Shown: piece after piece, positions 24,511-45,338 of the stretch
How positions within the stretch are numbered: position 1 is the stretch's first letter
How the letters are laid out: the number at the start of each line of letters is the position of its first letter
Assembly: GCA_001816585.1 (NCBI GenBank)
Contig: MHCJ01000003.1
Span: forward strand, 650,681-714,680
Length of the DNA stretch: 64,000 nt
Direction of reading: 5' to 3'
Origin: Candidatus Chisholmbacteria bacterium RIFCSPHIGHO2_01_FULL_52_32
GTDB taxonomy: Bacteria > Patescibacteriota > Microgenomatia > UBA1400 > Chisholmbacteraceae
Notes under the pieces: model-generated
The model's input: only the letters and a program-made list of their open reading frames with translations
The model's database searches: none
Told to the model about the DNA's origin: nothing
Position numbers and translations under genes: made by a program

Positions 24511-24844
24511 GATTACTCCCGGAGTTGTTCAGGTACTCAAGCTTTACCATTAGAATCCCGGTGTGGATCAACACGCTTTTCACTGAAAGCGCTTCCTTTT
24601 GACTCTCACCGGAGGCTTTGATAGACTTACTCAACAAATGAAGGAATCGAGAATGATGGGGAGAGAATTGGCTCGTTGATCCATCTAGCAACCGAGTCAG
24701 ACGGCATGTCAGACCGCGGTGCTCCACCCAACCCTGTATAGAGGGAAGGATTAGTCCAAACCTGCAATCAGCCGGGCGGAAAAATGGTTTACACCTCTTC
24801 TCTCACAGAAGAGGTTTTTTTTATGAAACAGAGGTGAAAAGAAG

Positions 24845-25861: not shown

Positions 25862-25983
25862 TAATCTCCCGGACTGTTCCCCAGCCGAATCTTAAGAAAG
25901 GGTAACGGGTTGCAGGGCGTACCTGCATGAAGGATCGGAAAGACTCCGCGAGATTGGTTCGCTTCGGGAAGGAAAGAAGAAGA

Positions 25984-26238
25984 TTAGTTCTTATCCGTAA
26001 CTCCGGCGTTCTGGTCAAGTCGGTCGATTGTCTCCAGACACTTGGTTGAGAATTCGGCCAAACTGGTGATCAATTTTCTATTAGCTTTCGTATAGCCGCT
26101 TGAAGGATCGGAGAGCCGAGGCCACTCTTTCTTCAAGTTTTTTTGATAACTCAAAAGCATCTTTTTTAATTTTCGCCGCTCCTTTGGAGTCCGAAGGATA
26201 TATTCAAGTCGGTTCTTCAACTTATTATCTACCCTCAC
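25984..26238 (-). CDS. small hypothetical ORF
   Basis: 84-aa basic ORF in an otherwise empty interval. No motif. Confidence 0.25.
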   Translation of the reverse strand: MRVDNKLKNRLEYILRTPKERRKLKKMLLSYQKNLKKEWPRLSDPSSGYTKANRKLITSLAEFSTKCLETIDRLDQNAGVTDKN

Positions 26239-26370
26239 AGTTTGCAGTATACCAGATCTGGAGAGGCCTTCGGCTTAGACCTTCGGTTCGGCAACCTCTG
26301 GTTCTGAGAAGAGCCTCTGGCTCGGAGAGGAATGGCGTTGAGAGGTCGGGACTCTTGATAACAGAACGAG

Positions 26371-26407
26371 TGACAAGGTTGCACGTATATGCGTGTGCGG
26401 TGGTCAG
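26371..26407. repeat. A-box copy (tgacaaggttgCACGTATATGCGTGtgcggtggtcag) preceded by an E-module (gagaggtcgggactcttgataacagaacgag) that also precedes the 22791 copy
   Basis: Directly visible. Confidence 0.85.
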
Positions 26408-26408
26408 G

Positions 26409-27032
26409 TTACAGATGGAAGTATTCTTTGTATGCGTCTTCGTTTTCCAAGTACCCTATCGTCAGTAGCGTGACATTTTCGCCAATACCATAGAGTTCAC
26501 GGATAAAGTCAATTGCTTCGTTACACGGATAGGGAAAAAGATAGACGCTCTTCTGGAGTTGTAAAAATCCAAGTCGTTTTAAGGTGTCTCGCATGGCGTC
26601 TCTGGCTCGATTTTTTCCTTTTGGCACATCGTAGGAAACGATCCGCCATCTTTTATCCCAGGAAGATGGTGTCGGTATTGTCAGATCGCTAATCTTGTAT
26701 TGAAGGAGTCTTTTCCTGCCTTTTTCCGTAATTTGAACCGCATATCTTTCCCCGATCCTATATATCCTGATTAGCTTCTTTTTCCGCATCTCTAAGAGTC
26801 GTCGGCGCAATCGCCGCTGATCAAACTGCTCCCATTCCTCTTCTTCAGGATACTCCTGTTTTTCAAAGCGATACCCCCGTAACAGTATCGGCAGACCGGG
26901 CATGATAAGGCTCCCGGCAATGAACGCACCAATCCCTGCAATCATGAGGATCTGTTTTGCGACCGGATAGGTTTTGCTGATCTTTTTCTTGCCCTTCTTC
27001 TCCGACATGCTTTGTGTCCTGGTTTTGTCCAC
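26409..27032 (-). CDS. membrane-anchored PaaX-C-like (Cas2-fold) domain protein
   Basis: N-terminal TM, then W-RIVSYDVPKGKNRARDAMRDTLKRLGFLQLQKSVYLFPYP matching the PaaX C-terminal domain pattern. Confidence 0.55.
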   Translation of the reverse strand: MDKTRTQSMSEKKGKKKISKTYPVAKQILMIAGIGAFIAGSLIMPGLPILLRGYRFEKQEYPEEEEWEQFDQRRLRRRLLEMRKKKLIRIYRIGERYAVQITEKGRKRLLQYKISDLTIPTPSSWDKRWRIVSYDVPKGKNRARDAMRDTLKRLGFLQLQKSVYLFPYPCNEAIDFIRELYGIGENVTLLTIGYLENEDAYKEYFHL

Positions 27033-27054
27033 TGTAGCTTAATATTTGAAGAGT

Positions 27055-27262
27055 GACAAGGTTACACGCATATGCGTGTCCGGTGGTCAGTAGTTCATGG
27101 CGGGGGGAAAATGCGTTGGGCAGGAAAATGGAGTGACAAGCGGGCACGCATATGCGTGTGCGGTGGTCAGTGAAAGTCAGGTTAGGTGGGCAAATGAGGT
27201 GGGGTTGCAGGGTGTACCTGCAAGAAATTAAAGTCTTCAAGGATAAAATGCCTGGGTGGCTT
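27055..27262. repeat. A-box, 41-nt linker (tagttcatggcggggggaaaatgcgttgggcaggaaaatggagt), A-box, B-module
   Basis: The same A-linker-A architecture with a similar linker occurs at 28057-28172. Confidence 0.85.
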
Positions 27263-27649
27263 GGCTACCCGTCCGTCCTTCCCTCGTAGCATCAGCGGAG
27301 CGACTCGTCAGGCGGATCCCATCGAACGGTAGGTCGAGAGTAAATCGCTCCGGAATGGAGAAGTAATGTGATAAACTACCAGGCATTATTCTGGATTAAA
27401 ATATCCTGAGAGAAATCTTGTATGAGCCAAGAAGACGGTGTCTTGCTCAGTGGGCAGTATCCGGAGAGGCGTTTGGAGGATGGCAGAGTCATTCCCAGCT
27501 GGCTGGTGGTACTGTACTGGAAGGATCGATTTTTAGGATAGGGAACATCCGGGAAAAGACCACACGTCTACAACATTGATCCCTCAGACTTTCACAAGAG
27601 CCTAAGTTTTGAGTGGGGACCATACAGTTCGATTGCAGCCTCCGCTCAT

Positions 27650-27949
27650 ATGCACTTGGCCAAAGAATATGGTTCGGACTTAGGACCTACGGTGACTCCC
27701 CAAGAAATAATCAAAGGTAATACATTAGGTGATAACGGCGAAGAACTGGAATTGGATCAGATCCTGGAAAAGTTCGCTCTGCAAGGAATGGATCCGGAGA
27801 CCGACTCGCACTTTGGTTTTATTACAATGGCGAGGCCATCAACTGAGGAAGAACTACAGCGTAAGAATGAATGGATACAGGAAAGGTTTGAGGAGAGTAT
27901 CGAGAGACAGAAGCGGATCTGCGAAGAAGCCGGTTTTCCTTTCGATTAG
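27650..27949 (+). CDS. small hypothetical acidic protein (cassette ORF)
   Basis: 99-aa ORF with no motif. Confidence 0.35.
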   Translation: MHLAKEYGSDLGPTVTPQEIIKGNTLGDNGEELELDQILEKFALQGMDPETDSHFGFITMARPSTEEELQRKNEWIQERFEESIERQKRICEEAGFPFD

Positions 27950-28056
27950 CTGATACAAAGAATGCCCCCTTTGGACGCTCGACATCTTCGAAGAGAACTC
28001 GAAGCGATATTTGCTTAACGCTTATCAGAAGTCGGGATGTCTCATTATTGGATAAT

Positions 28057-28375
28057 TGACAAGGTCGCACGCATATGCGTGTTTGGTGGTCAGGTGGTCA
28101 TGGCGGAGGGAAATGAGGCGGGCAGGAAAATGAGGTGACATACAGACACGCGATCGCGTGGGCGGTGGTCAGAATTGGTTACAGGCCGGATCTATAAGGA
28201 AAAAACCACTCACGAGGTTAAAAACTCCCTAGGTGGCTTGAGAATTGCACCTCCCAGGTGGAAGACTAGTGACAAACAGACACGCGATCGCGTGTTTGGT
28301 GGTCAGTGTGAGTCAGATTAGGTGGGCAGTTGAGGTAGGGTTGCAGGGCGTAGCTGCAAGAAAAGCCGCCACCTG
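28057..28375. repeat. dense repeat block: A, linker, A, partial B, C, A, B
   Basis: Three A-boxes (28057-28093, 28136-28172, 28270-28306), a C-module at 28236-28260 and a B hairpin ttgcagggcgtagctgcaa at ~28343. Confidence 0.85.
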
Positions 28376-32494: not shown

Positions 32495-33147
32495 TCCCTT
32501 CTTTTAAGCATCCCCCCGCGTTTTCCTACAAATAGCTCTTCTTTGAAATTTTCCTCACAAAAGTGAAGTAAATTCATAATGTCGTCTCTGCCATATAGCT
32601 CTACATACTGCTTAATTTCAATAAGATTGTCTTTTTTGGTAAGAGGTAGGCTATCCGGTGTACAAAAAATTAATTCATAGAAATCTAATGGCTGAATTTG
32701 ATCTCGTTTCCCAACTTTGTACAAATGGTAAGCCTTACTTTTCTCTATTCTCTTTACGAATATTCCTGCTCTTGTTCTCTCGTCTCCTTTACGTCTAACA
32801 ATAACCACATCTCCTGAAGAAGGGGCTAATTTGTTGTGTATTCTCTCTGCAGCTCTGGTACCAAGAGGTGTGATATTAAATCCCCGAGAAGTACTACCGG
32901 TAATATAATGCTTGTCAGTTCTACATCGGAGCCACGTTTTATTGACTAGGGATGAATCTGGCCACTCTGGGTGTCCGATCAGATGGAATCTAGATGGAAA
33001 AAGTGTAAAAACTTTCTCGACCAGATTCTCAAATGTCGGATTCTTATTCGTTTTAAGCAAGGAAAAAAGTGCGTACGTTACCAATTCGTCATACGAAATT
33101 TTCATGTAAACATCAGGTTCATAAAGCTCACGAGGTTTTGAGATCAT
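32491..33147 (-). CDS. hypothetical protein (middle gene of the GHKL operon)
   Basis: 218-aa ORF whose ATGA overlaps both neighbours (translational coupling). No recognisable motif. Confidence 0.5.
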   Translation of the reverse strand: MISKPRELYEPDVYMKISYDELVTYALFSLLKTNKNPTFENLVEKVFTLFPSRFHLIGHPEWPDSSLVNKTWLRCRTDKHYITGSTSRGFNITPLGTRAAERIHNKLAPSSGDVVIVRRKGDERTRAGIFVKRIEKSKAYHLYKVGKRDQIQPLDFYELIFCTPDSLPLTKKDNLIEIKQYVELYGRDDIMNLLHFCEENFKEELFVGKRGGMLKRRD

Positions 33148-33359
33148 AACCTAAATTCCTTCTTCTTTTTCTTAATAAAACGAGCCTTCGTCATCTTAAG
33201 TTGGGAATCGATTGCGTAGAAGATCTTATTGATCTCTTCATCGGAGTAATCGTAATTTGCTCTGTTGGAGAGATTTCCGAGAATTCGAAGTTTCTCGAGG
33301 ACGATATTTGTTCTTTGTACTGCCAGGCGTTTAAATCTATCTTGTCGTGTTTCTGTCAT
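33144..33359 (-). CDS. small basic protein, possible DNA-binding regulator (first gene of the GHKL operon)
   Basis: 71 aa with a predicted helical core RFKRLAVQRTNIVLEKLRILGNLSN and a K-rich tail. Confidence 0.4.
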   Translation of the reverse strand: MTETRQDRFKRLAVQRTNIVLEKLRILGNLSNRANYDYSDEEINKIFYAIDSQLKMTKARFIKKKKKEFRL

Positions 33360-33681
33360 AGGAACATTATCAATTGTGTATAAACAGCGCTATTATACCA
33401 TATATGGTATCATTTGTAAATATCTAATATTAGAAAATGATAATCTAATATTGCCTGATCTGTATATAAACCTTCACTTGAGATAAATAAAAACTGCCCT
33501 TCCGGGCAGCATTTGATTGTGTTCCTAAATATCCTAGTTCTCAAGTGCTCTTCAAGATATGAACTTTCGCTGATGCTATATCTCAGAGTTAGACACTATT
33601 ACCAGATAATCTGATAGTTTTGTTATTGACACTTTCGTAAAACTTTCATATAGTTTAACCGTTACCTTACAGTTCGTCATT

Positions 33682-35094
33682 ATGCTTACACCTAAACAAA
33701 AGAAAGTACTAGATTTCATAACATCTTTTATCAAGACAAATGACTATTCTCCATCATTAGAAGAAGTCGCGAAGAATTTTAAACTCAAGTCTGTTTCGAG
33801 TGCGCATCAATTTGTTGATGCCCTCCATAAGAAGGGATATTTAAAAAAAATAGAGAATCAACAGCGCTCAATTGAACTAATAATTGGATTGGTAGAGATC
33901 CCTTTATTTGGTTATATTTCCGCTGGTGAGCCTATTGAGGCTATTTCGAATCCAGAACCCATAAAAGTACCTCACAAGATGCTCTCGAAGAGTGGTCTTC
34001 ATTATGCACTAAAAGTTAAAGGCGATAGTATGGTTGATGAAGGAATAAATGACGGAGCTACAGTCATAATTCGAAGACAAGAGACGGCTACGAACGGCCA
34101 AAAGGTAGTCGCTCTTATAAACGGAAATGAAGCGACGCTCAAGAAGATTTATAAAGAGAAGAAAGGTTTTAGACTCCAGCCAGCAAATTCCAGCATGAAG
34201 CCAATTTTCGTAAAAGATTTAATAATTCAAGGAAAAGTGATAGGGGTACTACCAAACTATGAAGATACAACTAGACCTACGGGGAAAATAGCTCAAACCA
34301 AAATTCCTACAAAATTTGCTTTAGACAGGATTATTTCTGGTGATGTTTTAGAGGTAATGTCTCAAATTCCTGATAATAGCATTCATCTAGCTATAACTTC
34401 CCCGCCCTATAATGTGGGTAAAGATTATGACAACCATAATGATCGTATGAATTATCAAGAATATTTAGAATGGCTTGAGAAAGTGTGGAGAGAAACAAAA
34501 AGGGTACTTGTACCAGGGGGAAGGTTTGCACTAAATATTGCTCCGACAGGAATCAAAGATTTCGTACCTATTCACCACGATTTCGCAAATCAATTGCGTA
34601 AAATAGACATGAAATTTAGAACAGAGATTATTTGGTACAAACAAACAATGCTTAAACGTACTGCCTGGGGAAGCTTTAAAAGCCCAGCGAATCCTCATAT
34701 AGTACCATCGTGGGAATATGTATTAGTTTTCTCAAAAGACAAAGACAGGCTGGATGGAGATCAGAAAAACTCTGACATAACAAAGCAAGAGTTTATGGAT
34801 TTCTCTGATGGATATTGGAAAATACAGCCTGAGACAAAACGAAATGGACACCCGGCACCTTTTCCCGAGGAATTAATTTACCGCCTCATAAAATTCTATT
34901 CTTATAAAGGAAATACTATTTTAGATATGTTTGGTGGAACTGGAACAGTTGCAGTAGTGTCCCACAAGACTAAAAGACGTTTTATACATATAGACATTTC
35001 AGAAGAATACAACAGGGTAGCACAAAAACGCTTGGATGCCATCAAAAACCCCCCACAACTTTTTGGAGAGAATTCCTACCGGTTTGCTGCCTAA
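33682..35094 (+). CDS. fusion: LexA repressor (wHTH + S24 autopeptidase) plus beta-class N4/N6 DNA methyltransferase (SPPY, m4C-type)
   Basis: Residues 1-~200 align to E. coli LexA along their length: LTPKQKKVLDFI, the cleavage-site SAGEP, Ser nucleophile GDSM, Lys in ATLKKIYK, and PANSSMKPIFV. Residues ~215-470 carry MTase motif IV TSPPYN followed by motif I FGGTGT. It is a single uninterrupted ORF. Confidence 0.8.
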   Translation: MLTPKQKKVLDFITSFIKTNDYSPSLEEVAKNFKLKSVSSAHQFVDALHKKGYLKKIENQQRSIELIIGLVEIPLFGYISAGEPIEAISNPEPIKVPHKMLSKSGLHYALKVKGDSMVDEGINDGATVIIRRQETATNGQKVVALINGNEATLKKIYKEKKGFRLQPANSSMKPIFVKDLIIQGKVIGVLPNYEDTTRPTGKIAQTKIPTKFALDRIISGDVLEVMSQIPDNSIHLAITSPPYNVGKDYDNHNDRMNYQEYLEWLEKVWRETKRVLVPGGRFALNIAPTGIKDFVPIHHDFANQLRKIDMKFRTEIIWYKQTMLKRTAWGSFKSPANPHIVPSWEYVLVFSKDKDRLDGDQKNSDITKQEFMDFSDGYWKIQPETKRNGHPAPFPEELIYRLIKFYSYKGNTILDMFGGTGTVAVVSHKTKRRFIHIDISEEYNRVAQKRLDAIKNPPQLFGENSYRFAA

Positions 35095-35124
35095 ATACTC
35101 AAAGCGGTTCGAAAAACTATAGAA

Positions 35125-35940
35125 TTAGCCAAATAATGTTTTACCTTCAAGCACCCCTTCATCAATTGGCTCATCAGTAAAATTGGGAACAACCTCTTGT
35201 CTCCAGATCCTTAGGTCGGAAAAAAGCGGTTTTCCTCCGTCAGTCCTGGAAAAATCCAGTTTTTTAACTTGGGAACATTCAGTAGTACTTGGGTGTGTTG
35301 AAAAAACGCGATCCAAATAAGCTTCCGACTTTTTTCGTAAGCTACTTGCTTCATTATCGCCTTTGACGAACTTCTTATCCAAATCTTGAGTTACCAAGCA
35401 ATATTTGATGTTGTTATTTCGAAGTGCTAAAGCCCAGAACAAAACAGCATCGTTTCTGGCATGGTCACTTGTCTTACAGTTTAAAAGCGCAAATACTTTG
35501 AGTCTACCGCCTTGTTCTTTTGATAGCACAACTATATCGGAGTCTGGCCACACGCCGGTGGTTGTTTGAACGCAGCGTCGTCTAGCATCTAAAGTTAAAA
35601 ATCGCACAATTTCCTGGGCTCGTGGCTTTTTTCTGAGATGATCTCCTTTTACGGCCACTATCCCTTCGTTGTTCAAGTTTTCATTTATGATATTTCTAAT
35701 GAATATTTCAAAATTATTTCCACTGGCTGCTACCCAACTCTGCCTTGCCTGGTTTAAATTTCCTCTGCCTTTTTCCTGATAGAGTCTAATGTAAATTTTC
35801 TGAGTAGTCTCCATGACCTTTCTTTCAGGAACTTCCTCCAATTGAACAGTGTTCAAGATCCTCCCTACATCATTAATGGGTTTATTCCCAAAGCTCTGCA
35901 AATCCCGTTTTGCTTTTTGATAAATTATTTCGAAATCCAT
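35125..35940 (-). CDS. putative type II restriction endonuclease (convergent partner of the MTase)
   Basis: 271 aa with a PD...(D/E)xK-like stretch (WPDSDIVVLSKE). The position convergent to a methyltransferase fits a restriction enzyme. The motif assignment is weak. Confidence 0.45.
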   Translation of the reverse strand: MDFEIIYQKAKRDLQSFGNKPINDVGRILNTVQLEEVPERKVMETTQKIYIRLYQEKGRGNLNQARQSWVAASGNNFEIFIRNIINENLNNEGIVAVKGDHLRKKPRAQEIVRFLTLDARRRCVQTTTGVWPDSDIVVLSKEQGGRLKVFALLNCKTSDHARNDAVLFWALALRNNNIKYCLVTQDLDKKFVKGDNEASSLRKKSEAYLDRVFSTHPSTTECSQVKKLDFSRTDGGKPLFSDLRIWRQEVVPNFTDEPIDEGVLEGKTLFG

Positions 35941-36110
35941 AAAATATTGATTGTGAGTGTACTAATACTAATAGTTTAACACAAACACCAGACTAAAACT
36001 CCGTCCGTATAGATTACCTCGCCGTAATAGCTATTGCAGGTCCAGCATGCAAAAGTATGAAAGGTGTTTACGGGATGTCAAGTGTAGTTTAGCGAGCTTA
36101 AGGGGATTTA

Positions 36111-36168
36111 GGGGCTCCCAGTGAGATAGGCAAGCCATCTCACGGGATCAGAGAGAAGTTAGGGGAGG
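36111..36168. ncRNA. conserved ~55-nt hairpin element, copy 1 (family also at 39260-39313 and 56730-56786)
   Basis: ggggctcccaGTGAGATaggcaagccATCTCACgggatcagagagaagttagggg. Copies differ by compensatory stem changes (GTGAGAT/ATCTCAC versus GTGGGAT/ATCCCAC). Confidence 0.5.
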
Positions 36169-36614
36169 ATCAGCTCCCCTTGCATCCCCGGCCAGAGGCC
36201 TTCGGTCTTTTCAAGCCTGATACGGACAAGGCAAGTGTTGTTTTTAAGATTTGGAAGAGGAGGCAAGACTTGGCCGGGGAACTCCCCGTCTTTGCCGGAA
36301 AGAAGGATTTTCACCTGCGCTCCTTCCGCAAAGTTTCCGATTTCGCTCCAGGGAACCTCAAACTCAAAGTGAAGCGTAGCAAAGTCAAGGATCGCGAATC
36401 CGTACGACCCGGGAGTGATGTAGAGCCCCGGCCGCAAGCCGTCATCCGAAACCACGATTCCCTCAACCGGAGAGGCTAAGGATGTCTGGTCCATCCGGTA
36501 TTTTGCCAGCTCGACTGCCTTGACCGCCGGAGCCTCGGCGAAGGCGGGCCTCGCCCTTCCGTCCTGTCCCTCGTAGCCCCGCCTTCCACCTGGGAGGTGG
36601 AATAGCCTTGACAC
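36159..36614 (-). pseudogene. 5'-truncated fragment of an RND/HlyD-family periplasmic adaptor gene
   Basis: Encodes only the C-terminal beta-barrel/MP-proximal part (EGIVVSDDGLRPGLYITPGSYGFAILD...VRIRLEKTEGLWPGMQGELI). The coiled-coil N-terminal half is absent, and the missing side abuts ccgacctgcag repeats at 36690 and 36790. Confidence 0.5.
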
Positions 36615-36839
36615 CTAGGGATATAGGGATGTTGCGGTCTTTCACCTTAGAGGTGCACTCTTGACCACACCTTGGGTATTTCGTAAAGGTCCGACCTGCA
36701 GTTTCCTCCTCTCGCCTTCCAAACCAGCTTTGGTATTCTCTGGACAAATCGGGTTTTTACAGACGAAGCCGAATCCGACTCGATCCGACCTGCAGGCTAG
36801 AAAACAGTTCGGGTTTTTGTGCGACGAACATTTTGACGT

Positions 36840-37319
36840 CTATCGATGCTTTTCTACCCATTCCCAGAATTCTTTTGGGGAAAAAACAAGGAGGGGCTTG
36901 AGAGCCTTCCTTACCCGATCTGTGAGGATATGGCCTTTATCAAGAGAAAGAAGGAAATGAGCTCCGGATAGTACAGCCCCTGCAAGAATGGGAGCATCGT
37001 CCGGATCTACGATCACACTATGGAACTTCTTTATGATGTGTCGAGGGGCATCAGAGATCACACGGATCACTTTCTTCTTCAGAAGTGCTTCAAGCTTGTC
37101 CGGATCGACACCCAATTTGTGAAGATGTTTTGTAACTTCTTCAATAACAAATGGGGTGGTGAACAACCGAAGTTTCCCCTTTGCTCCGGCAGAGAGAATT
37201 TTTCTTGAGCCACCACTGGGAGAGGCAAGAGCTGAAAGGATGACCGAGGAATCAAGGAAGACGGTTAATGATTGCCTCAATGCGCTTCTGCTGTTTTTCC
37301 GTGAGTTGATCATCGGCAA
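36840..37319 (-). CDS. vapC: PIN-domain ribonuclease toxin (VapC)
   Basis: VFLDSSVILSAL and downstream conserved acidic residues. The start is uncertain because the track ORF overlaps the antitoxin by 68 nt. Confidence 0.75.
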   Translation of the reverse strand: MPMINSRKNSRSALRQSLTVFLDSSVILSALASPSGGSRKILSAGAKGKLRLFTTPFVIEEVTKHLHKLGVDPDKLEALLKKKVIRVISDAPRHIIKKFHSVIVDPDDAPILAGAVLSGAHFLLSLDKGHILTDRVRKALKPLLVFSPKEFWEWVEKHR

Positions 37320-37503
37320 TCCACTGCTTCATCTCTCGCAGGGAGAACGACCGCAATTTCTGTTGTTGCCGTTTCACCGGTTTAATCTCCGCAAGCGGGC
37401 GAGAGCGGTAAAACAAGAGTAACGATTTTCCTTCCTCCATCGCAGACCTCAGCTTGGAGAAATCTTCACGGAGTTCCTTGGTGGAAATGGTTTGAATCTT
37501 CAT
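37252..37503 (-). CDS. vapB: antitoxin of the VapBC pair
   Basis: 83 aa; the TISTKELRE...SLLLFYRSRPLAEIKPV N-terminus resembles a Phd/YefM antitoxin. It lies immediately upstream of the PIN gene. Confidence 0.65.
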   Translation of the reverse strand: MKIQTISTKELREDFSKLRSAMEEGKSLLLFYRSRPLAEIKPVKRQQQKLRSFSLREMKQWIADDQLTEKQQKRIEAIINRLP

Positions 37504-37519
37504 GCTGAAAGTTTATCTT

Positions 37520-37760
37520 AAGATTATCTTTGTGTCAAGTAAAAATAGGGTTTAAGGGAAGGTAAGGGTGACTAAGGGTGGATTAAGGGTAATTTGGGCA
37601 AGCTTGTAGCTGGGAGGATTAGGAAAGCTTGTAGCTTGTAGCTTATTAGCTTGTAGATAAAGAGAGAGAAGATTTAGGATTTACGATTTATGATTTACGA
37701 ATAGAGAAATAAGAGAGAAGATTTAGGGATTAGGAATGAGAGAGAAGCCGGAGGTTTACC
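37520..37760. repeat. degenerate short tandem word repeats (TAAGGGT, CTTGTAG, GATTTA families) with regularly spaced GGG tracts
   Basis: aagggaaggtaagggtgactaagggtggattaagggtaatttggg...cttgtagcttgtagcttattagcttgtag... Confidence 0.8.
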
Positions 37761-37766
37761 ACAGTA

Positions 37767-37850
37767 CCAGACCAGTCAGACTGGTCGGTACGTGGTTTCA
37801 GTCTCTCGATTGAATGAAGCCCCGAGTCTGACTCGGGGAGGCTTCACTTG
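37767..37850. terminator. composite hairpin element, copy 2 of the 9513-9611 family
   Basis: gtaccagaccagtcagactggtcggtac hairpin, then ccccgagtctgactcgggg hairpin, then gaggcttcac. The stem base pair differs from copy 1 in a compensatory way (gcacc/ggtgc versus gtacc/ggtac). Confidence 0.5.
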
Positions 37851-39085
37851 GTTCTCTTTTGCAGAACAGATCTTGCGTAGATAACCAGCGCTCCCAAGCC
37901 TGCAAGACAACCCACAACTTCGACAAAAAATCCGATATACCTTGCTGTGTGCAGGAGGGTATATACCGCAAGACCGACGGCGAAACTGACATACACATGC
38001 ACCTTCTGATTGAGGATGCGTCCCAACCAATTCCCGATTGCGAGTCCGATAAAGACTTTGGCGATATACAGATCGATCAGAAGCAGCATGAAAAGGATCA
38101 GCGTCAGCGGGATTCCGACAAGCGTTACCATACCGAGTATGAATGCCGGACCGGCAAGCAGGAAGATCAGAAATCCCCATCCCAAACTGCTGAATAATTT
38201 CTTCTCCACCGTTTCTGCGACAATCTGGCTCTCTTTCGGGAAGAGCTTGAGGATCACCAGTCCGACGATGAGCGCGGCAAAATAGGACCAGATCCGGAAG
38301 CCGATCGTTAATCCGCGAAATATCCCCTGCCCGACATTCCTGATGTATTGTGGGCGTAATTCTTTTGCGAGAGAGAGTTGGCTGGGTATCACTTTGCGAA
38401 TTTTTCCGGATACTGTCGCTTCTCCGACAAAACGCGGTTCTTCTTCGCTGGAGTAGATAAGATCACCGTTTACCTTTGCACCTGATCCGAGCGTCAGGGC
38501 GCCGGCGCCCACCTGAATGTCCTTGGCGACAATTCCGTCAAGGGTGACTGCACCGCCGCCGCCGGTAATGCCCCGTCCGACATTGGCTTGCGAATCGATC
38601 GATCCTCCGCCAAACACCAACCCGCCGCCGATCTTCGTTTCTTTATCGATGGAAATGTTTCCGCCCACAACCGTAACAGAATCACCGACTTGAGCCTCAT
38701 CAATGCGTACATTTCCTCCGGCTGCACGGATGTCTTGTGTAATTTTCCCGGAGATTTCGACGTTTCCCCCCGCCGCCAGAACATCACCGTTGACCGTACC
38801 CCGAATCCTTACCATTCCGCCTGCGGCATAGACATCACCGTTCACCGTTCCCTCAACTAACACCTCTTGCCCGGTAATAAACAGATCATCGTTGACAACC
38901 TGGTTCTTGGGGACTGCCGCCACCCTTTCTTCCCCTGTCGTCGTGACCACCGCACCCCTTATTACCGGAACAAACAGGAAGGAAAACGCCAAACCAATGA
39001 CCAAAACGGAAAAGATTTTTTTCATATCTTTTTTACTATCAGCGGAAAGCTTTCTTACTATATATAATTTGTTGTCCGTGTTCAA
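37844..39085 (-). CDS. bactofilin-like (polymer-forming, DUF583-type repeats) protein with C-terminal multi-TM anchor
   Basis: Signal, then repeated G-x-V-x-G-D-V beta-helix repeats, then about 5 TM helices. Confidence 0.55.
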   Translation of the reverse strand: MNTDNKLYIVRKLSADSKKDMKKIFSVLVIGLAFSFLFVPVIRGAVVTTTGEERVAAVPKNQVVNDDLFITGQEVLVEGTVNGDVYAAGGMVRIRGTVNGDVLAAGGNVEISGKITQDIRAAGGNVRIDEAQVGDSVTVVGGNISIDKETKIGGGLVFGGGSIDSQANVGRGITGGGGAVTLDGIVAKDIQVGAGALTLGSGAKVNGDLIYSSEEEPRFVGEATVSGKIRKVIPSQLSLAKELRPQYIRNVGQGIFRGLTIGFRIWSYFAALIVGLVILKLFPKESQIVAETVEKKLFSSLGWGFLIFLLAGPAFILGMVTLVGIPLTLILFMLLLIDLYIAKVFIGLAIGNWLGRILNQKVHVYVSFAVGLAVYTLLHTARYIGFFVEVVGCLAGLGALVIYARSVLQKRTK

Positions 39086-39089
39086 GAAG

Positions 39090-39360
39090 ATGGGTGGGTG
39101 TGAAGTGTACGAATCAGATAATTATGAATCATGAATTATAAGAAGTTAAGGGAGGGTAAGGGGTGTTAAGGGAAATTAAAGGAAGTTAGGGGAAGTTAGG
39201 AGAGGCTAAGTGGTTGTAGGTCCGAGCTGCGCAAATGTTAAGGGTGTTTAAGGGAAGTTAAGGCCCCAGTGGGATAGTCAAGGCATCCCACGGGGTCGGT
39301 GAGAAGTTAAGGGAGGTTAAGGGATTGCAGGACCTTTGCGTGTTTTTGCCGTATACTTAG
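39090..39360. repeat. GTTAAGG-type degenerate tandem repeats with the embedded conserved hairpin element (copy 2, 39260-39313)
   Basis: gttaagggagggtaaggggtgttaagggaaattaaaggaagttaggggaagttagg...aaggccccagtgggatagtcaaggcatcccacggggtcggtgagaagttaaggg. Confidence 0.8.
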
Positions 39361-39370
39361 AATCGATCCT

Positions 39371-39838
39371 ATGAAAAATAATCTTCCGGAGAAAATCCGG
39401 TTTACCAAGGAAGGGTACGCGAAGATGGAAGAGGAATTCCAAGCCTTAACGGATGAACGGGTGGAAATCCTGGTGCGGCTGCAAACGGCCCGCGAGATGG
39501 GAGATTTATCCGAAAACGGTGCCTATACGGCAGCCCGCTTGGAGCTCGGATCAACCGACAGAAGGCTCCGCCAGCTACGCTACCTGATGCGTTTTGCCGA
39601 GGTGGTGGAGAGCAAATCCGCCGGAACCATCGACTTCGGCAGCCTGGTTACGCTTGATAACGGGAAGAAACAGATGATCTTCACTCTGGTCGGAAAGTAT
39701 GAATCCGATCCTGCCAAACAAAAACTGTCCATTGAGGGCCCGCTCGGAATGGCTCTCAAGGGAAAACGGGCAGGAGACACGGTGAAGGTACATGCCCCGG
39801 CAGGGACGACAACCTACCGCGTGGTGAAGGTGGAGTGA
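39371..39838 (+). CDS. greA: transcription elongation factor GreA
   Basis: 155 aa with the N-terminal coiled coil carrying the DxxENxxY region and a C-terminal FKBP-like domain. Confidence 0.9.
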   Translation: MKNNLPEKIRFTKEGYAKMEEEFQALTDERVEILVRLQTAREMGDLSENGAYTAARLELGSTDRRLRQLRYLMRFAEVVESKSAGTIDFGSLVTLDNGKKQMIFTLVGKYESDPAKQKLSIEGPLGMALKGKRAGDTVKVHAPAGTTTYRVVKVE

Positions 39839-39857
39839 GAATTAGGCACGGGAGGCT

Positions 39858-39950
39858 TACTTGACAATAAGGTTTACAATTATATTGACAATTATTTAGG
39901 GCAAAGCTTGACACAAAACTTGACAATAAGCTTTACCATTGTGTAGTCTT
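39858..39950 (+). promoter_or_regulatory. four TTGACA boxes in 65 nt (two copies of cTTGACAATAAG) upstream of the Fic gene
   Basis: TTGACA at 39861, 39885, 39908 and 39920. A possible operator array. Confidence 0.4.
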
Positions 39951-39961
39951 GAAAGAGAAGT

Positions 39962-40981
39962 ATGCTCCGCCCCAGGTACAAACGCACCAATAAGATCCTC
40001 ACCAACATCGCCGAGATCGAGCGGCTGTACGGGCAGATTGAGGCAATCCGGATCCCCGAGAAACTGGAGCTCAACCTCAAGCGGGACAACCTGATTAAAT
40101 CCACCTACGCCTCAAACCGCATCGAAGGAAACCCCTTAACACTTCCCGAAGTGACCAACCTCCTTTTGGATGAGCGGGTGCCGACGAACCGGGACGAAAA
40201 GGAAGTGGTCAGTTACTTTACGCTTCTGTCGGAGCTTGACCGGTTCAAGGACAGCGAACTCTCTTTGGAACTCGTGCGCGACTTTCATGGGCGGGTACTG
40301 GCGGGCGTGGATGAGACGGCAGGCAGAATCAGAGACCGGAAGGTCGTGGTCGGCAAGTATCTCGGGGAGCGGGGATCAATGACGCTCAGAGTAAAGCATG
40401 ATCCCCCTTTCCATGCCCGCGAGAAGATCGAGGCAGCTTTGACGGACCTTCTTCTGTGGACGGGAAAGGCGGGCAATTTGCCGACCGTTCTTAAGACCGG
40501 GATTTTCCACCACGAATTCGTGTACATCCACCCGTTTGAGGACGGGAACGGCCGCGTCTGCCGCATGCTGACGTCGCTTTTATTTATTAAAGACGGGTAC
40601 CGGATCAATAAATACTTCATCCTGGACGATTACTACGACATCGATAAGATCCTCTACTCGGACCAATTGCATTCCGCCGATAACGGGGACAAGACCGCGT
40701 GGCTTGAGTATTTCTCTGACGGGGTCAAGTATTCCCTGATCGGGGCACTCGACCGGGTGAAGAACGCGGCACGGACCCTTTCCCACAGGGACCGGCCGAC
40801 GAAGAAGGAAAGCGAGGTCCTGGCAATCATGCAGGAGCAACCGGAGATGACCTCGACTGAGATCGCCGCAAAAATCGGGGTTACCCGGCAACAAGCGCAC
40901 AACCTGCTTTCTTCACTGGTCCGGAAAAGCCTGATCGAGCGCAAAGGAACGACGAAGTCGAGCTACTATATCATTAAGTGA
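39962..40981 (+). CDS. Fic/DOC-family protein with C-terminal wHTH
   Basis: Core Fic motif HPFEDGNGRVCR plus a C-terminal HTH (TSTEIAAKIGVTRQQAHNLLSSL). Confidence 0.85.
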   Translation: MLRPRYKRTNKILTNIAEIERLYGQIEAIRIPEKLELNLKRDNLIKSTYASNRIEGNPLTLPEVTNLLLDERVPTNRDEKEVVSYFTLLSELDRFKDSELSLELVRDFHGRVLAGVDETAGRIRDRKVVVGKYLGERGSMTLRVKHDPPFHAREKIEAALTDLLLWTGKAGNLPTVLKTGIFHHEFVYIHPFEDGNGRVCRMLTSLLFIKDGYRINKYFILDDYYDIDKILYSDQLHSADNGDKTAWLEYFSDGVKYSLIGALDRVKNAARTLSHRDRPTKKESEVLAIMQEQPEMTSTEIAAKIGVTRQQAHNLLSSLVRKSLIERKGTTKSSYYIIK

Positions 40982-41039
40982 TAAGGGAAAAGGAATCAGT
41001 GATAAGGGATGAGGAGTCTTTCGACTCCTTCGACTTCGC

Positions 41040-41215
41040 TCAGGATAAAGGTTTAGGGTATAGAGCGGAGAGCATAGAGCAGAGAGGAGAGAGGAGAGCG
41101 GAGAGCTTAGGGCATAGAGCTTAGAGCAGAGAGGAGAGAGGAGAGCGGAGAGCTTAGGGCATAGAGCTTAGAGCAGAGAGCGGAGGGGAGAGGGGAAAGG
41201 ATGGAGGGGAGAGGG
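41040..41215. repeat. GAGAG/TAGAGC-rich tandem repeats including a perfect ~47-bp tandem duplication (about 41081-41127 and 41128-41175)
   Basis: gagaggagagaggagagcggagagcttagggcatagagcttagagca occurs twice in tandem. Confidence 0.85.
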
Positions 41216-41223
41216 TAGAGGGT

Positions 41224-42552
41224 TTAGTCAGGCTCGTAGAACCAATTCCAATCCGGATCGATCACTTCCTGAATGCTGCTCTTTTTCATCTTGTAGATGC
41301 CGTCTTCGAATACCGTCTGCCAGGTGCCTTCGTAGAAGTGGAAATCCGCTTCTCCATCCACCCAATTTTTCGTCGAGAATTTGACAAAGACGGTATCGTT
41401 TTTCCCTGCTGCCTGTTTTGTCACGAAGATTTGGACGTCCAGGACATCGGTGAAGCGGTTGGACCACTCCTCAAAATCGGTCTTTTGCAGATACTCTCTG
41501 CTTAGGAGCCTGAAACCGTCCTCCATCCGCCGCGCCTTGAGGTAGGTATAGAAGGCTTTGACCGCTTCTTCGGGCGAAACGGCTGGATCGGCCTTGATCT
41601 TGGCAATATCCTGGTCGGTAAAGGTCGGCCAGAGGTGCTGAATGGAGTCGCCGGAGACGAAAAATGAGGTCCCCGCGATGGACGCGGTATTGATTCCGAC
41701 CACTTCCCCGCATTGATCGACGACCGGCCCGCCGCTCATCCCATCCGCAAGATCCAGATTTATTTGCAGGAAATCAAGGGGATTCTTTTTTGACCGCCGC
41801 AGGCTTGCAAAATTCCCTTTGTAGACGGTGACTTCTCCGGGAAGACCCGTCCCGAAGGCGTAGCCGGCGGACATTACCGGTTCATTGGGCTGCAGCAATT
41901 CCGGCGAAGAGAACGAGAGCACCATGCCGCTTTGCTTTTCTCCGAGATACAGGAGGGCAAGGTCCGCATCTTTGTTGGCGGTGATGTTTTCCGGTGTCGT
42001 AAAATTACCGCTCGGGAAAATGACCTTCGGGCTCGGCTCACCGTCAATGACATGGAAGCTGGTCAGGACCTGGTTCGGAGCGACAAAGAATCCCGATCCC
42101 TCGGAATAACCCCCCACCACGCGGACGACCGATCCCTGGAGGTTCCTTGTCGTTAACCATTCGGAACAGAGGAATTTTTGATATCCCCCGAAGCGCTCGA
42201 CCAGGTAACCGAAGCGGTACTCCGTAAAGATGAAGTAGGAAAAGATGGCAGCCCAAAAGACGGTTTTTGCGAAGTTCTTTTTGCTCCTCAACGGCCAAAT
42301 CAGCAGATAAAAGGCGAGTTTGACAAGCCTGGTGATGAACTTAAGGAGGAGGAGACCTATGTAGTAAAGGCTGTAGGTGAACAGTTTAATTGGGAAAAGC
42401 GGAAGGGGAAAGAGGAGGTGGCGGATATAGGCCTTCGTGAGGGCGACCGCGAGGTGAACGCTTCTAAAGAGCTTTATCTTAAGCGTCCTTGTCCAGGGGA
42501 AGGTATTCGTGAAGAACCGTTTTAGGCCCCGCATGATGCCATATTGTAGCAC
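41224..42552 (-). CDS. membrane-bound trypsin-like serine protease with C-terminal accessory domain
   Basis: N-terminal TMs, catalytic His (TSFHVI), Asp (DADLALL) and Ser (GMSGGPV). Confidence 0.7.
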   Translation of the reverse strand: MLQYGIMRGLKRFFTNTFPWTRTLKIKLFRSVHLAVALTKAYIRHLLFPLPLFPIKLFTYSLYYIGLLLLKFITRLVKLAFYLLIWPLRSKKNFAKTVFWAAIFSYFIFTEYRFGYLVERFGGYQKFLCSEWLTTRNLQGSVVRVVGGYSEGSGFFVAPNQVLTSFHVIDGEPSPKVIFPSGNFTTPENITANKDADLALLYLGEKQSGMVLSFSSPELLQPNEPVMSAGYAFGTGLPGEVTVYKGNFASLRRSKKNPLDFLQINLDLADGMSGGPVVDQCGEVVGINTASIAGTSFFVSGDSIQHLWPTFTDQDIAKIKADPAVSPEEAVKAFYTYLKARRMEDGFRLLSREYLQKTDFEEWSNRFTDVLDVQIFVTKQAAGKNDTVFVKFSTKNWVDGEADFHFYEGTWQTVFEDGIYKMKKSSIQEVIDPDWNWFYEPD

Positions 42553-42612
42553 GGGTTATGGGATATGAATTATGAATTATGAATTATGAATTAAGATTTG
42601 AGAATTGAGAAG
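42553..42612. repeat. AATTATG tandem heptamer (4 copies)
   Basis: gaattatgaattatgaattatgaattaag. The same word repeat recurs at 52654-52690. Confidence 0.85.
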
Positions 42613-43722
42613 TCAGCGTTGGTCTCCCTGCGCGAGGTTTTTGTTGTAGAAGAGGGACAGATCGAATTCCTGCTTGGCTTTTTCTTCCTCTCCCTTTTGG
42701 CGGTAGATTTCTCCCCGAATTTGGTAGAGCTCCGAGAAGGCGCGGTTCCCTCCGTTTAAAATATTGTCCGTTATCGCAAACACCCTGTCGTCGTCGCCGA
42801 GTTTTTGATAGGCGAGAATCGGTTCAATCTGATACCAGAGCATGCGCCGGGGAAGCCTGGTTTCCACCTGTTCAAAAGCTTTTACAGACTCTTCATTGTG
42901 TCCCAGGTGCTGGTCGGCAACGGAGAGGTTAAAGAGGGGGTAGATATTTTGCGGGTCGAGCCCGTGTTCTTGCTCGGCGCGCTGACGGGCGTTGTCCCAG
43001 GCGACGGCTTCATCCATTTCCAGGCCAATGATCGCTTCAACCAGGGCCTCCTGTTCTTCCTTATAGATAACGATGTAGCCGAAGTTAAACGGCTGCCACA
43101 TCGAGAGAAAGTCATAGTAGGCGATCCGCTTGTTCGGCCCTTGGTACGAGTCATCCTGGATGATCAGTTTCTTTTCTTCGTCGAAGCCCCGAACGATGCG
43201 AAAGTGCCCGATGTCCTCATCGACCTTCAGCCAGGTTTTGACCACGACCGGAATGCCATTGTTCGTTAACACTTTGAGGAGGCGGATGTCCCCATTTGGC
43301 CGATGAAGCGCCTTTACACCATAGTGCTGGGCCCAAGCGACGAACTCACGGGGGAAGATCGTTTTGTCGTCATTGTCCCCTTTGGGATTTTGGTACGGGC
43401 GCATTTGATCTGCGAGTTCTTTTTGGGACACCGAGATTCCGAAATATGACAGCATCATGGAGAGGGTGGCCGGGCCGCAGTTGTTGAAAGTCTGATAGAC
43501 GTGGGTCGGGCCGGGAAGGAGGGTCGAGCTGCCGGGTTCCCTGACCGGAGTGTCCGGTTTTTCCTGTTCGGTTTCCGCTTTTGGCTCCGCTTCCGCGCTT
43601 GCCTCCCGGGGTGCTTCGATGAATTTGGTTTCAACGGCTGGCCTGGGCCTATTGAAAATAGCATACGCACTGATTGCTATGAGAAAAACCGATGCCACGA
43701 GAAGAAGGATTGTTCTTCGCAT
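42613..43722 (-). CDS. C39-like cysteine peptidase domain protein with C-terminal TPR-like region
   Basis: Signal/TM, then the NNCGPATLSMMLSYFG Cys active-site region of the peptidase_C39_2 type. Confidence 0.6.
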   Translation of the reverse strand: MRRTILLLVASVFLIAISAYAIFNRPRPAVETKFIEAPREASAEAEPKAETEQEKPDTPVREPGSSTLLPGPTHVYQTFNNCGPATLSMMLSYFGISVSQKELADQMRPYQNPKGDNDDKTIFPREFVAWAQHYGVKALHRPNGDIRLLKVLTNNGIPVVVKTWLKVDEDIGHFRIVRGFDEEKKLIIQDDSYQGPNKRIAYYDFLSMWQPFNFGYIVIYKEEQEALVEAIIGLEMDEAVAWDNARQRAEQEHGLDPQNIYPLFNLSVADQHLGHNEESVKAFEQVETRLPRRMLWYQIEPILAYQKLGDDDRVFAITDNILNGGNRAFSELYQIRGEIYRQKGEEEKAKQEFDLSLFYNKNLAQGDQR

Positions 43723-43739
43723 GGGGATATTATAGACGG

Positions 43740-43868
43740 GGAAGGTCAAAAAGCGTATGGCGAATGGCAAATAGCAAATAGCTAATAGCAGATGGCATAT
43801 AGCTTATAGCTTATGGCGTATAGCTGATAGCGAAGAGCAGGAGATCAGAGAGAAGTTAAGGGGGAAGA
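43740..43868. repeat. ATAGC(A/T) word repeats
   Basis: gcaaatagcaaatagctaatagcagatggcatatagcttatagcttatggcgtatagctgatagcg. Confidence 0.8.
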
Positions 43869-44141
43869 TTACTTTCTTCGGGGAGGTGCTTCTCCACCGC
43901 GACTGCCGCGGAGTTCGTTTACTACCCTCCCGGTTGGGTCAACACGACGGAGGAACGATTCGCCGGTGAGGGGGGTCGTCTCCAGCTCTACTTTGTTGCC
44001 TTTTTCGTCAACTTCCAAGGTTGTCGGTTTTGGGTGAAACATTTCTTCTACCTGATCGGGCATACTACTATTATAGTATAATCCGCTCTTTTGAATTTTG
44101 CACTCTATGCACCTCATTGTACGTAATTTATGTCTAGACAA
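43869..44141 (-). CDS. small hypothetical protein
   Basis: 90-aa ORF with no motif. Confidence 0.25.
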
Positions 44142-44175
44142 TGGGGTACAATGGGTTTATAAACAATCCGTGCGT

Positions 44176-44661
44176 ATGGGACAGGTTTTTTTCCTTTTTG
44201 TGATATCGCTTGTGTTGTCTGCCTGTACGCTGACGTGGCCGAAAGACATCGAGGTTCCCAATGAATCCGAAATTAACCCACCGCCTACGGAGGTGACAAT
44301 GACACCGGCACCTGACGCGACACTCAAGATTGAAGATATGTACGGCGGGACCGGACCCGAGGCAAAGGATGGAGACCGGGTTTCCGTTCACTACACCGGG
44401 ACTTTTCCGGACGGCGGGAAGTTTGACAGCTCTATTGACCGCAAAGAGCCGTTTGAGTTTACGCTGGGAAAAGGGGAGGTCATCCGCGGTTGGGATATCG
44501 GTGTTGCCGGTATGCAGGTCGGCGCGAAGCGGCGGCTGACTGTTCCGCCGCAGTTTGCCTACGGGGAGCGGGGGGCCGGGAATGTCATACCGCCGAATGC
44601 GACGCTTATCTTTGAAATCGACTTACTTGCGATTAATCCTCCGAAGGAATCCAGTTTTTAG
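44176..44661 (+). CDS. FKBP-type peptidyl-prolyl cis-trans isomerase, lipoprotein
   Basis: Signal with lipobox LSAC, then the FKBP domain ([15 protein letters not shown]...[19 protein letters not shown]...[10 protein letters not shown]). Confidence 0.85.
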
Positions 44662-44945
44662 ATCTTCCTTTGTTTGTGATCCATGTTCCTTCTTTGCGCA
44701 CACAAAGTAGGTTGCCCCTTTCTTTGCATGCCCAAAGAAAGCGGCGAAAGAAAGGGCACCCCAGTGAACGATCTCTCGGGAACTTGTTCGCTCATATTAT
44801 GTCATCAAACTCCTCGGGATAAACCCTTCGTCAGGCAGTCGATGACTTCTTAAAGGAATTCGCTCACGTCGTTCTCGAGTAGCTGCGTTCAAAGGGGTTT
44901 CAACATGAAGCTGACGACTGAAGGCTGAAGACGATACCCTATACG

Positions 44946-45338
44946 CTAGACGCTTTGTCCGGCTTTGACCGGCATTTCTCCAATGTACTTTTTGGCTTTT
45001 TCCAACAGTTCCGCGAGGGTGACGTTGACTTTGAGGAGGTACTCTTTCGCACCCAATTTGCGGGCGGACTCCCCTTCTTCGGCGAGGTTCGTCATGACAA
45101 TAACCGGAATATCTTTCGTTACCTCGGAAAGCTTCAACTGCTGGAGAACGTCAAAGCCGTTCATCCCGCCCGGAAGCATGATGTCGAGGATAATCAGGTC
45201 CGGTTTTCCCAACGTAGCTTTCGAGAGCCCCGACTGGCCGTCTCCGGCAAGATCAACCGCAAAACCTACTTGGGTGAATTTCTTCTGATAGGCAAGGGCT
45301 AAGGGCTGGTCGTCTTCGACAACAAGAATTTTTTTCAT
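44946..45338 (-). CDS. single-domain response regulator (REC), third of three in tandem
   Basis: LVVEDD, LIILDIMLPG, IPVIVMT and K motifs of a receiver domain. Confidence 0.85.
   Translation of the reverse strand: MKKILVVEDDQPLALAYQKKFTQVGFAVDLAGDGQSGLSKATLGKPDLIILDIMLPGGMNGFDVLQQLKLSEVTKDIPVIVMTNLAEEGESARKLGAKEYLLKVNVTLAELLEKAKKYIGEMPVKAGQSV

Follow-up and report, generated by a model that had tools for sequence, protein, structure and literature searches.

In the IS200/IS605 family and in the repetitive extragenic palindrome (REP)-RAYT systems, HUH Y1 enzymes act on single-stranded DNA hairpins. Other short repeats offer further points of comparison: Rickettsia palindromic elements (RPEs) are 100-150 bp long and can lie in frame within protein-coding genes, the attC sites of integrons have an inverse core (RYYYAAC ... 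GTTRRRY) that pairs at the base of the fold, and the short tandemly repeated repetitive (STRR) heptamers of cyanobacteria form tandem arrays that fill intergenic regions. Here, we analyzed a bulged hairpin element in a 64,000-nucleotide (64 kb) stretch, referred to here as the window, of Candidatus Chisholmbacteria bacterium RIFCSPHIGHO2_01_FULL_52_32, a member of the candidate phyla radiation (CPR; Microgenomates). No publication on Chisholmbacteria repeats or on Patescibacteria REPs turned up in literature searches, and the hairpin family looks like an apparently undescribed relative of bacterial REP elements. The element is most probably not an independent small RNA (sRNA) gene and is not a canonical terminator, and we put the chance at about even that it is a REP-like dispersed palindrome that is read in single-stranded form, probably as DNA, by a trans-acting protein. 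The best-supported description of the hairpin is that of one module of the mosaic intergenic DNA of Candidatus Chisholmbacteria, beside a separate tail module and C-poor tandem arrays.

A first-pass annotation, made from the letters of the window, had placed three copies of a hairpin on the + strand. These copies are borne out: a pattern written for the upper stem plus the 3' arm (GATAG-N4-14-CATCYCACGGG) has 3 matches in the window, one for each copy, with 0.00 expected from 100 shuffles. Read from the base upward, each hairpin consists of 4 bp (CCCC/GGGG; copy 1 has TCCC/GGGA), a bulge of a single A or G, 7 bp (GTGRGAT/ATCYCAC), a second, conserved bulged A, a closing G-C pair and a tip. The consensus is CCCC-N-GTGRGAT-A-G-(variable self-pairing tip)-C-ATCYCAC-GGGG, an imperfect palindrome of 28-45 nt across the family. 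The stem of about 11 bp that had been proposed is present in its base pairs, as 4 plus 7, but it is split by the first bulge and followed by the second, and what had been described as an 8-nt loop measures 8-11 nt and is partly paired. The tips of the window copies differ in sequence yet self-pair (GG..CC, G..C and, in copy 3, GGAC/GTCC). We found that the reported double change between GTGAGAT/ATCTCAC and the GTGGGAT/ATCCCAC of copy 2 (A-T to G-C) is real, and copy 1 adds another, C-G to T-A, at the outermost base pair. The stem of copy 2 can be extended to 39262-39297 by two more pairs (G.T and G-C). Overall, the core hairpins fold far better than shuffled sequences, whether as DNA or as RNA and on either strand (z about -3.6 to -4.7). 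A covariance-model search, which the first-pass annotation had suggested, was run on the window; with filters off, it returned nothing beyond the three copies, a variant hairpin at 22966 and a tail-only copy at 43833 (Table 1). The variant keeps the base and the bulge, has two upper pairs swapped (A-T/G-C for G-C/A-T) and is without the GTTAAGG tail. Altogether, the window contains 4 hairpins of 28-35 nt, 3-17 kb apart, all of them intergenic and all on the + strand.

Table 1. Hairpin, tail and array features of the window, in order of position.
Feature	Position	Strand	Sequence or remark
Variant hairpin (fourth)	22966-22993	+	CCCC-A-GTGGAG-TAGAAGC-CTCCAC-GGGG; 34.6 bits, E about 3e-6
Hairpin copy 1	36116-36147	+	TCCC-A-GTGAGAT-A-GGCAAGCC-ATCTCAC-GGGA; covariance-model score 53.6 bits
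Tail module of copy 1	36148-36165	+	TCAGAGAGAAGTTAGGGG
C-free array, about 10-nt units	39134-39263	+	GAAGTTAAGG type; upstream of copy 2
Hairpin copy 2	39264-39295	+	CCCC-A-GTGGGAT-A-GTCAAGGC-ATCCCAC-GGGG
Tail module of copy 2	39296-39313	+	TCGGTGAGAAGTTAAGGG
Tail-only copy	43833-43862	+	AAGAGCAGGAGATCAGAGAGAAGTTAAGGG; end of heptamer array, hairpin absent
C-free array, 10-11-nt units	56658-56733	+	AGGGAAGTTA type; G=34, C=0; upstream of copy 3
Hairpin copy 3	56734-56768	+	CCCC-G-GTGAGAT-A-GGACTTCGTCC-ATCTCAC-GGGG; covariance-model score 57.3 bits
Tail module of copy 3	56769-56786	+	TCGGAGAGAAGTTAAGGG

We asked how far the family extends beyond the window. A scan of a genome collection that did not include the source genome, using a hairpin-plus-tail pattern, gave 4 matches, 3 of which arose by chance; the genuine one (L009, also L014 and L017) belongs to a second Chisholmbacteria species that carries the hairpin and whose GreA is 68% identical to that of the window. 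A protein annotated in Candidatus Chisholmbacteria bacterium RIFCSPLOWO2_01_FULL matches the window GreA at 100% identity, and the window corresponds to positions 349,804-413,803, in reverse, of contig MHCM01000003.1 (GCA_001816955.1; 1,158,385 bp). Hairpins were also found in related metagenome contigs (L011/L038, L030, L032, L039, L040, L046 and L048) and, among the matches listed for viral contigs (IMG/VR), the full stem is present in L087, L111 and L146; the GTGGGAT allele had zero matches in the viral scan. Contig L146, which encodes tail proteins J and L, contains about 8 copies, all on the coding strand and 0.5-1.7 kb apart, and its hairpin pairs are direct rather than inverted. No copy was found in 20 kb of the second Chisholmbacteria genome around greA or in about 58 kb from more distant relatives.

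The paired structure is conserved across the family. In a hand-curated alignment of 20 distinct copies, which are related by descent, 89.3% of stem cells are standard pairs and both sides have changed at 9 of the 15 pairs; none of 500 column shuffles reached the observed values, and sliding the 3' partners by 1-3 columns lowers pairing to 31-46%. Within the core, double changes turn C-G into T-A at the base in 3 copies, G-C into T-A at stem position 3 in 2 copies and A-T into G-C at stem position 4 in 5 copies; the 22966 variant adds its two swapped pairs. Tips are unrelated in sequence and still pair (GGAC/GTCC, GCGC/GCGC, GGGC/GCCC, GTG/CAC and GGC/GCC), and the bulged bases lie on the same arm in nearly all copies. 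The suggestion that selection acts on the structure, first made from a single position, thus holds at many more, tips included. The first-pass annotation had also held that uncompensated stem disruptions in further copies would speak against it. Such members do exist (L030:3257, L030:1775, L146 6391-6439 and the degenerate partner in the second L146 pair), as do a 5'-truncated copy (L040:1138), half hairpins and one duplicated 5' arm, though pairing prevails overall; non-compensated and truncated copies fit a repeat family with decaying members. The covariation signal is likewise expected of a DNA hairpin. Mismatches do not separate the folding strand: G.T, which wobbles when the + strand is the folded one, was counted 7 times overall and 3 times in the well-aligned core, against 5 and 1 for A.C, which wobbles when it is the - strand.

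The same alignment bears on whether the inverted repeat GTGRGAT...ATCYCAC might instead be a double-stranded operator, bound by a dimeric transcription factor near promoters. Several copies do lie 20-60 nt from predicted extended -10 promoters on the same strand, and the half-site is also found as direct repeats. Against this, half-site spacing varies from 7 to 16 nt across copies, the spacer is itself selected for self-complementarity, and neither copy 1 nor copy 3 is located at the promoter of a co-oriented gene. Moreover, the two arms covary with their alleles unmixed (13 A-T and 5 G-C at the variable stem position, with only 1 G.T and 1 A-A). We consider an operator very improbable.

The hairpins are strand-polar. 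Within any one contig, the copies are uniformly oriented: they occupy the purine-rich and G-rich strand of the local arrays, and this is the sole rule that holds everywhere. In the host, polarity is independent of gene direction: of the 60 genes called between 8.7 and 64 kb, the annotated part of the window, 44 belong to the minus strand and 16 to the plus strand, so that most are opposite to the hairpins. About a fifth of this annotated part lies outside called genes. Gene-strand bias and GC skew point in opposite ways on the direction of replication, and both are confounded by the arrays.

The conserved stem sequence, the bulges on one arm, the pairing that continues into variable tips and the uniform, transcription-independent polarity together suggest that the hairpin of one strand is read by a protein. 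We propose that the selected entity is this one-strand hairpin, most likely as single-stranded DNA, and that a trans-acting protein would read the stem sequence and the bulges, much as HUH/Y1 enzymes do with REP and IS200/IS605 hairpins. Recognition by the protein might then drive the spread or the maintenance of the element with fixed polarity. By analogy, the single-stranded DNA hairpins of the HUH/Y1 enzymes (REP-RAYT and IS200/IS605) would be its closest mechanistic counterparts. Copies that are transcribed, such as those in 5' untranslated regions (UTRs) of the phage contig L146 and copy 3 in the 3' UTR of a dehydratase gene, may also form stable RNA hairpins as a secondary effect. Among the three possibilities that the first-pass annotation had raised, a hairpin recognized by a protein is the most plausible, although the searches described below revealed no protein partner.

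The other two, a small non-coding RNA and a regulatory RNA motif, fare worse. An independent, multi-copy sRNA gene would account for a stable hairpin with covariation and for the 3' tail (TCRGWGAGAAGTTARGGG, pattern GGGRTC-N3-5-GAGAAGTTAAGGG) that is conserved after the three main hairpins. This tail is, though, an independent module: it also occurs without a hairpin, both in the window and at many metagenome loci, where the tail lacks a 5' arm and in some cases keeps the 3' arm alone (..CTCACGGGG and ..TCCCACGGGG). In the metagenome scan, a tail-only pattern matched 38 loci, roughly half by chance within coding DNA. No consistent promoter-like site precedes the hairpins and no terminator follows them, the element has no fixed relation to genes or promoters, and its truncated copies, tandem pairs and one copy within an open reading frame (ORF) resemble the behavior of a repeat. 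Rfam 15 at the gathering threshold returned only a tRNA-Gln in the whole window, and seven hairpin-bearing loci had no Rfam match even at E<=1. We give an sRNA gene next to no credence.

The first-pass annotation was also right that the element is not a plain intrinsic terminator. A canonical terminator was considered and rejected, as the hairpin is present but is never followed by a T-run; the 3' sequence is TCRGAGAGAAG, CAAGGG or TAAAAA, and a terminator scan did not list these sites.

The intergenic regions around the hairpins are filled by tandem units of 7-11 nt (TTAATGT, AGCTTGT, AGAGCAG x18, TATGAAT, AATAGCA, GAAGTTAAGG, TAGGGGT and others). All copies had been placed in GTTAAGG-type tracts; this needs correction for copy 1, which lies among TTAGGGG-type units. 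We also observed arrays of 7-14-nt units, G-rich and almost C-free on the + strand irrespective of how the genes are oriented, at 3309-3369, 37509-37740, 41062-41222, 42564-42611, 43756-43831, 52649-52686, 59553-59654 and 60710-60741, including an array of 18 heptamers with a 47-nt super-repeat (41069-41196). In the arrays listed, G exceeds C on the + strand in all but one, and most are nearly C-free there. Similar arrays occur in related contigs and in the phage contigs L111 and L146. Some array units (GGTGGATAGAC and GATGGATAAAC) may resemble DnaA boxes, and arrays of the GGG-N7 kind may be able to form G-quadruplexes.

Our data indicate that the family shares much with the REP, BIME and REPIN elements of Proteobacteria. 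Like these, it consists of imperfect palindromes of 20-40 nt with a conserved stem sequence and mismatches or bulges, has many dispersed extragenic copies in mosaics with other short motifs, occupies sites after genes and near promoters, and includes decayed members. REP-type elements are multi-copy, extragenic and about 20-40 nt long; here, there are 4 copies in the window and about 20 distinct copies in relatives, one of which is in an ORF (L111). One account of REP palindromes (PMC3733652) describes a conserved GTAG or CGTC tetranucleotide at one end. In contrast, neither GTAG/CTAC nor CGTC/GACG adjoins the stem in this family, whose 5' flanks are TAAGG, GGGGC, AAGGG, ATTCA and others and whose 3' flanks are TCRG, CAAG and TAAA. 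The family further differs in that no RAYT gene, the cognate Y1 HUH transposase gene that REPs often flank, is among the Pfam-annotated genes of the window (8.7-64 kb), in that the copies have one orientation where BIMEs and REPINs alternate, in its embedding in C-poor tandem arrays of 7-11 nt, and in its CPR host and its presence in phage contigs as well.

The subterminal hairpins of IS200/IS605 elements are likewise imperfect, with bulged or mismatched bases on one arm, and bulges on one arm make the two DNA strands distinguishable. Both systems have a strand-specific, uniform polarity along the replicon, and both are without terminal inverted repeats or obvious target duplications. Unlike IS200/IS605, the element here consists of the hairpin alone, and no transposase, conserved cleavage tetranucleotide or left-end/right-end pair was identified. 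A miniature inverted-repeat transposable element (MITE) was a further comparison, since the arms can be read as 12-bp terminal inverted repeats and the flanks are direct repeats (GTTAAGG ... GTTAAGG, or TTAGGGG ... TTAGGGG at copy 1). These flanking repeats are ambiguous because any insertion into a tandem array gives the same look, and an element of 28-45 bp is far below known MITE sizes.

Similar to RPEs, the family has a palindromic repeat in frame within a protein-coding gene, albeit in a single case, and RPEs are longer. Together with the repeats that adjoin it, the L111 hairpin encodes a segment of about 27 amino acids, in frame, in the linker of an N6/N4 methyltransferase, between its TCEC and V(L/F)DPF motifs. 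The segment is missing from 10 of 11 homologues, and the repeat modules that adjoin the hairpin recur 1 kb downstream. We infer that the segment is probably an in-frame insertion, judged against homologues of which even the nearest share no more than 50% identity. L111 also contains other small hairpin modules in repeated form (1150-1225 and 2184-2321), partly inside predicted ORFs; one, CCGGGTGCC-TCACA-GGCACGGGA, has the base CCGGGTG..CACGGG, as in the hairpin family, and another is GAGAAKTTAYCTGCC-TCTAA-GGCAG.

Like the element, integron attC sites are single strands that fold into two stems, carry extrahelical bases on one arm and vary in their terminal structure. They are also all co-oriented, and in L146 one hairpin lies between most small genes. 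An attC identity was nonetheless rejected: the inverse core is absent, the base is CCCC/GGGG, and the flanking GTTAAGG units are direct rather than inverted. In addition, no integron integrase is among the annotated genes, and the spacing of the window hairpins is not that of one site per cassette. The likeness to STRR heptamers concerns the surrounding arrays and not the hairpin, as both are intergenic heptanucleotide tandem arrays; the arrays here belong to another taxon, have other sequences and are strictly polar and C-poor on one strand.

Several observations weigh against a REP-like palindrome read by a protein as single-stranded DNA. The covariation counts are inflated by the kinship of the copies, and in palindromes templated correction can yield covariation without selection. 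No Y1/HUH transposase or recombinase is among the Pfam-annotated genes of the window (8.7-64 kb), where about 5% of the genome was inspected; in the L146 ORFs, Pfam and PHROGs searches identified nothing apart from tail proteins, an HNH-AP2 protein and one functionally unassigned PHROG. The stem has no GTAG/CGTC head of the kind that characterizes the two large REP superfamilies, and the copies have neither a consistent target or flanking motif nor a clear target-site duplication around them. Furthermore, copy 2 and its tail are identical over 59 of 59 nt upstream of greA in another species (L050), whose greA is 90% identical (85% at third positions), whose remaining spacer is unalignable and whose upstream gene is unrelated. 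Judging from this comparison, the identity looks like local purifying selection, and a cis-regulatory role accounts for it no less well than a selfish repeat does. Lastly, several L146 copies follow promoter-like sites and precede, by about 20 nt, a Shine-Dalgarno sequence with a start codon, a placement that suggests a role at the RNA level.

The latter points lead to the main rival, in which the element is a cis-acting RNA hairpin within the messages of its neighbors, serving to stabilize a 5' or 3' end, as a processing site, as the target of a translational or antitermination factor, or as an insulator or non-canonical terminator between transcription units. We regard this account as rather unlikely. 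It would explain the conservation of copy 2 in a second species as well as the predicted 5' UTRs of L146, where some copies follow the order promoter-like site, heptamer array, hairpin, GGGGTAAAAAAGGAG, about 7 nt and ATG. It would also suit the L087 hairpin, which is separated by 22 nt from the preceding stop codon and by 17 nt from the following ATG, and copy 3, which lies between the convergent stops of a pterin-4a-carbinolamine dehydratase gene (56668, +) and a DUF359/CTP-transferase gene (56805, -), 66 nt past the stop of the co-oriented one. A population single-nucleotide polymorphism in copy 3 (T-A to T.G) keeps a wobble pair on the + strand. Canonical terminators are not enriched in the region either: hairpin-plus-T-run terminators at 33000-45000 number 16 vs 13.7 in shuffles, and the host may rely little on classical intrinsic terminators. 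Sigma-70-like promoters in the same interval are enriched (24 vs 11.8 in shuffles).

Other copies argue against a cis-acting RNA. Copy 1, which lies between the 3' end of a minus-strand 151-amino-acid ORF (stop 36159) and a minus-strand promoter-like site (36081-36054) upstream of a BsaWI-like restriction gene, is antisense to both neighbors. Four further copies (2, 22966, L040:1138 and L032:545) are found in divergent regions or directly 5' of predicted extended -10 promoters; the start codon follows these promoters within about 7-40 nt, so such hairpins would be absent from the mRNA. Copy 2, for instance, is in a divergent region 76 nt upstream of the greA ATG (39371). Another L146 copy lies between a canonical terminator and a strong promoter, so that in this contig a canonical terminator is already upstream, and the missing U-run counts against a terminator at all copies. 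Polarity tracks the chromosome strand and not the genes, the mismatch counts given above favor no strand, and a stabilizer or terminator would need no conserved stem sequence. The protein-read palindrome remains the favored reading.

Some of the neighboring genes have features of their own. The restriction-modification pair that adjoins copy 1 (33682-35940) combines the BsaWI-like endonuclease with a methyltransferase that has N-terminal LexA-like DNA-binding and S24 peptidase domains. The greA gene is apparently leaderless, with a promoter-like TTTGCG-17-TAGAAT that ends 7 nt 5' of the ATG and no Shine-Dalgarno sequence (39330-39373), and in several related contigs extended -10 boxes, of sequence TGGTATACT or TGGTATAAT, closely precede start codons. 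Upstream of a Fic/HTH gene, tandem 12-mers of the TTGACAATTATA type (39861-39925) repeat -35-like TTGACA boxes, and these 12-mers are conserved in position in two other species (L050 1700-1790 and L049 16705-16738).

Gain and loss of copies bear on a further alternative, namely that the hairpin is a neutral by-product of the arrays. A GGTGRGATAG-like unit would have been inverted by template switching and spread or homogenized by recombination, nothing would read the hairpin, and the apparent compensatory changes would be palindrome-templated correction. In agreement with this, the 5' arm doubles as a direct-repeat unit that grades into GTTAAGG-type units in L030, L039 and L048 (CCCCGGTGGGATAGACC GATGGGATACC ... 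GGTGGATAGAC GATGGATAAAC GGTTGGTAAGG GTTGATTAAGG), and most arrays of the window are without a hairpin. The mosaic also behaves as lineage-specific filler: in a relative (L192), only 13 nt separate the same convergent genes at the site of copy 3 (DUF359 protein 48% identical). In L051 (ENA ERZ27254843 k141_2370606), the flanks are identical to the window and copy 2 is missing together with about 170 bp of array; the missing stretch, 39142-39317, is bounded by two direct repeats (AGAAGTTAAGGGAGG), consistent with a deletion between them. This deletion allele is provisional because the contig looks like a recombinant strain or a chimeric assembly inside greA (compared over window 39020-39840, it is identical up to greA codon 58, and beyond it third positions are 78% identical). 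Set against a neutral origin, the stem sequence and the two bulge positions persist in copies whose tips and flanks are unrelated, both in phages and in two host species. Templated correction should erase bulges, yet the bulges are conserved, and copy 2 is unchanged while its surroundings turned over. A neutral by-product is therefore unlikely in our view, and if the element were merely a decaying repeat the finding would be ordinary.

A broader possibility, which we consider doubtful, is that hairpin, tail and C-poor arrays act jointly in cis as one strand-polar system that spans the genome of a CPR bacterium and has been copied by its phages, with the bulged hairpin as the site for an enzyme or motor acting on single-stranded DNA. 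The reader could be a REP/RAYT-like HUH enzyme of a new type, or a reader of polarity linked to replication, repair or segregation. If so, the mosaics would mark strand identity rather than regulate individual genes. If the hairpin is a strand-specific enzyme substrate, as the favored reading allows, REP/RAYT-like biology would extend to CPR bacteria, and the element would offer a handle on DNA exchange and organization in CPR genomes and their phages. CPR genomes are tiny (here about 1.16 Mb), and yet much of the non-genic space consists of short tandem arrays with a conserved bulged hairpin. The hairpin family can also be used as a lineage marker that ties phage contigs to Chisholmbacteria-like hosts. 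Finally, the repeat mosaics break or mask assemblies and explain assembly gaps: at the copy 3 locus in L173 (8540-8610; GCA_001816605.1 MHCK01000040.1), the array next to the hairpin is replaced by a run of N.

We also observed a second, unrelated palindrome family in the window (22792-28305), with 9 copies of about 35 nt each, all on the + strand. Its sequence is GACAAGGTCACACGC-ATAT/GATC-GCGTGTCCGGTGGTCA, with GCGATCGC at the center of some copies. Intervals of 0.1-2 kb separate the copies, which are interspersed with small hypothetical ORFs and with toxin-antitoxin genes in an island of lower G+C content, and because of this spacing and setting the arrangement looks cassette-like. The sequence GAATTGCACCTCCCAGGTG is found 3' of the 22966 hairpin, and the same sequence precedes two palindromes of this second family.

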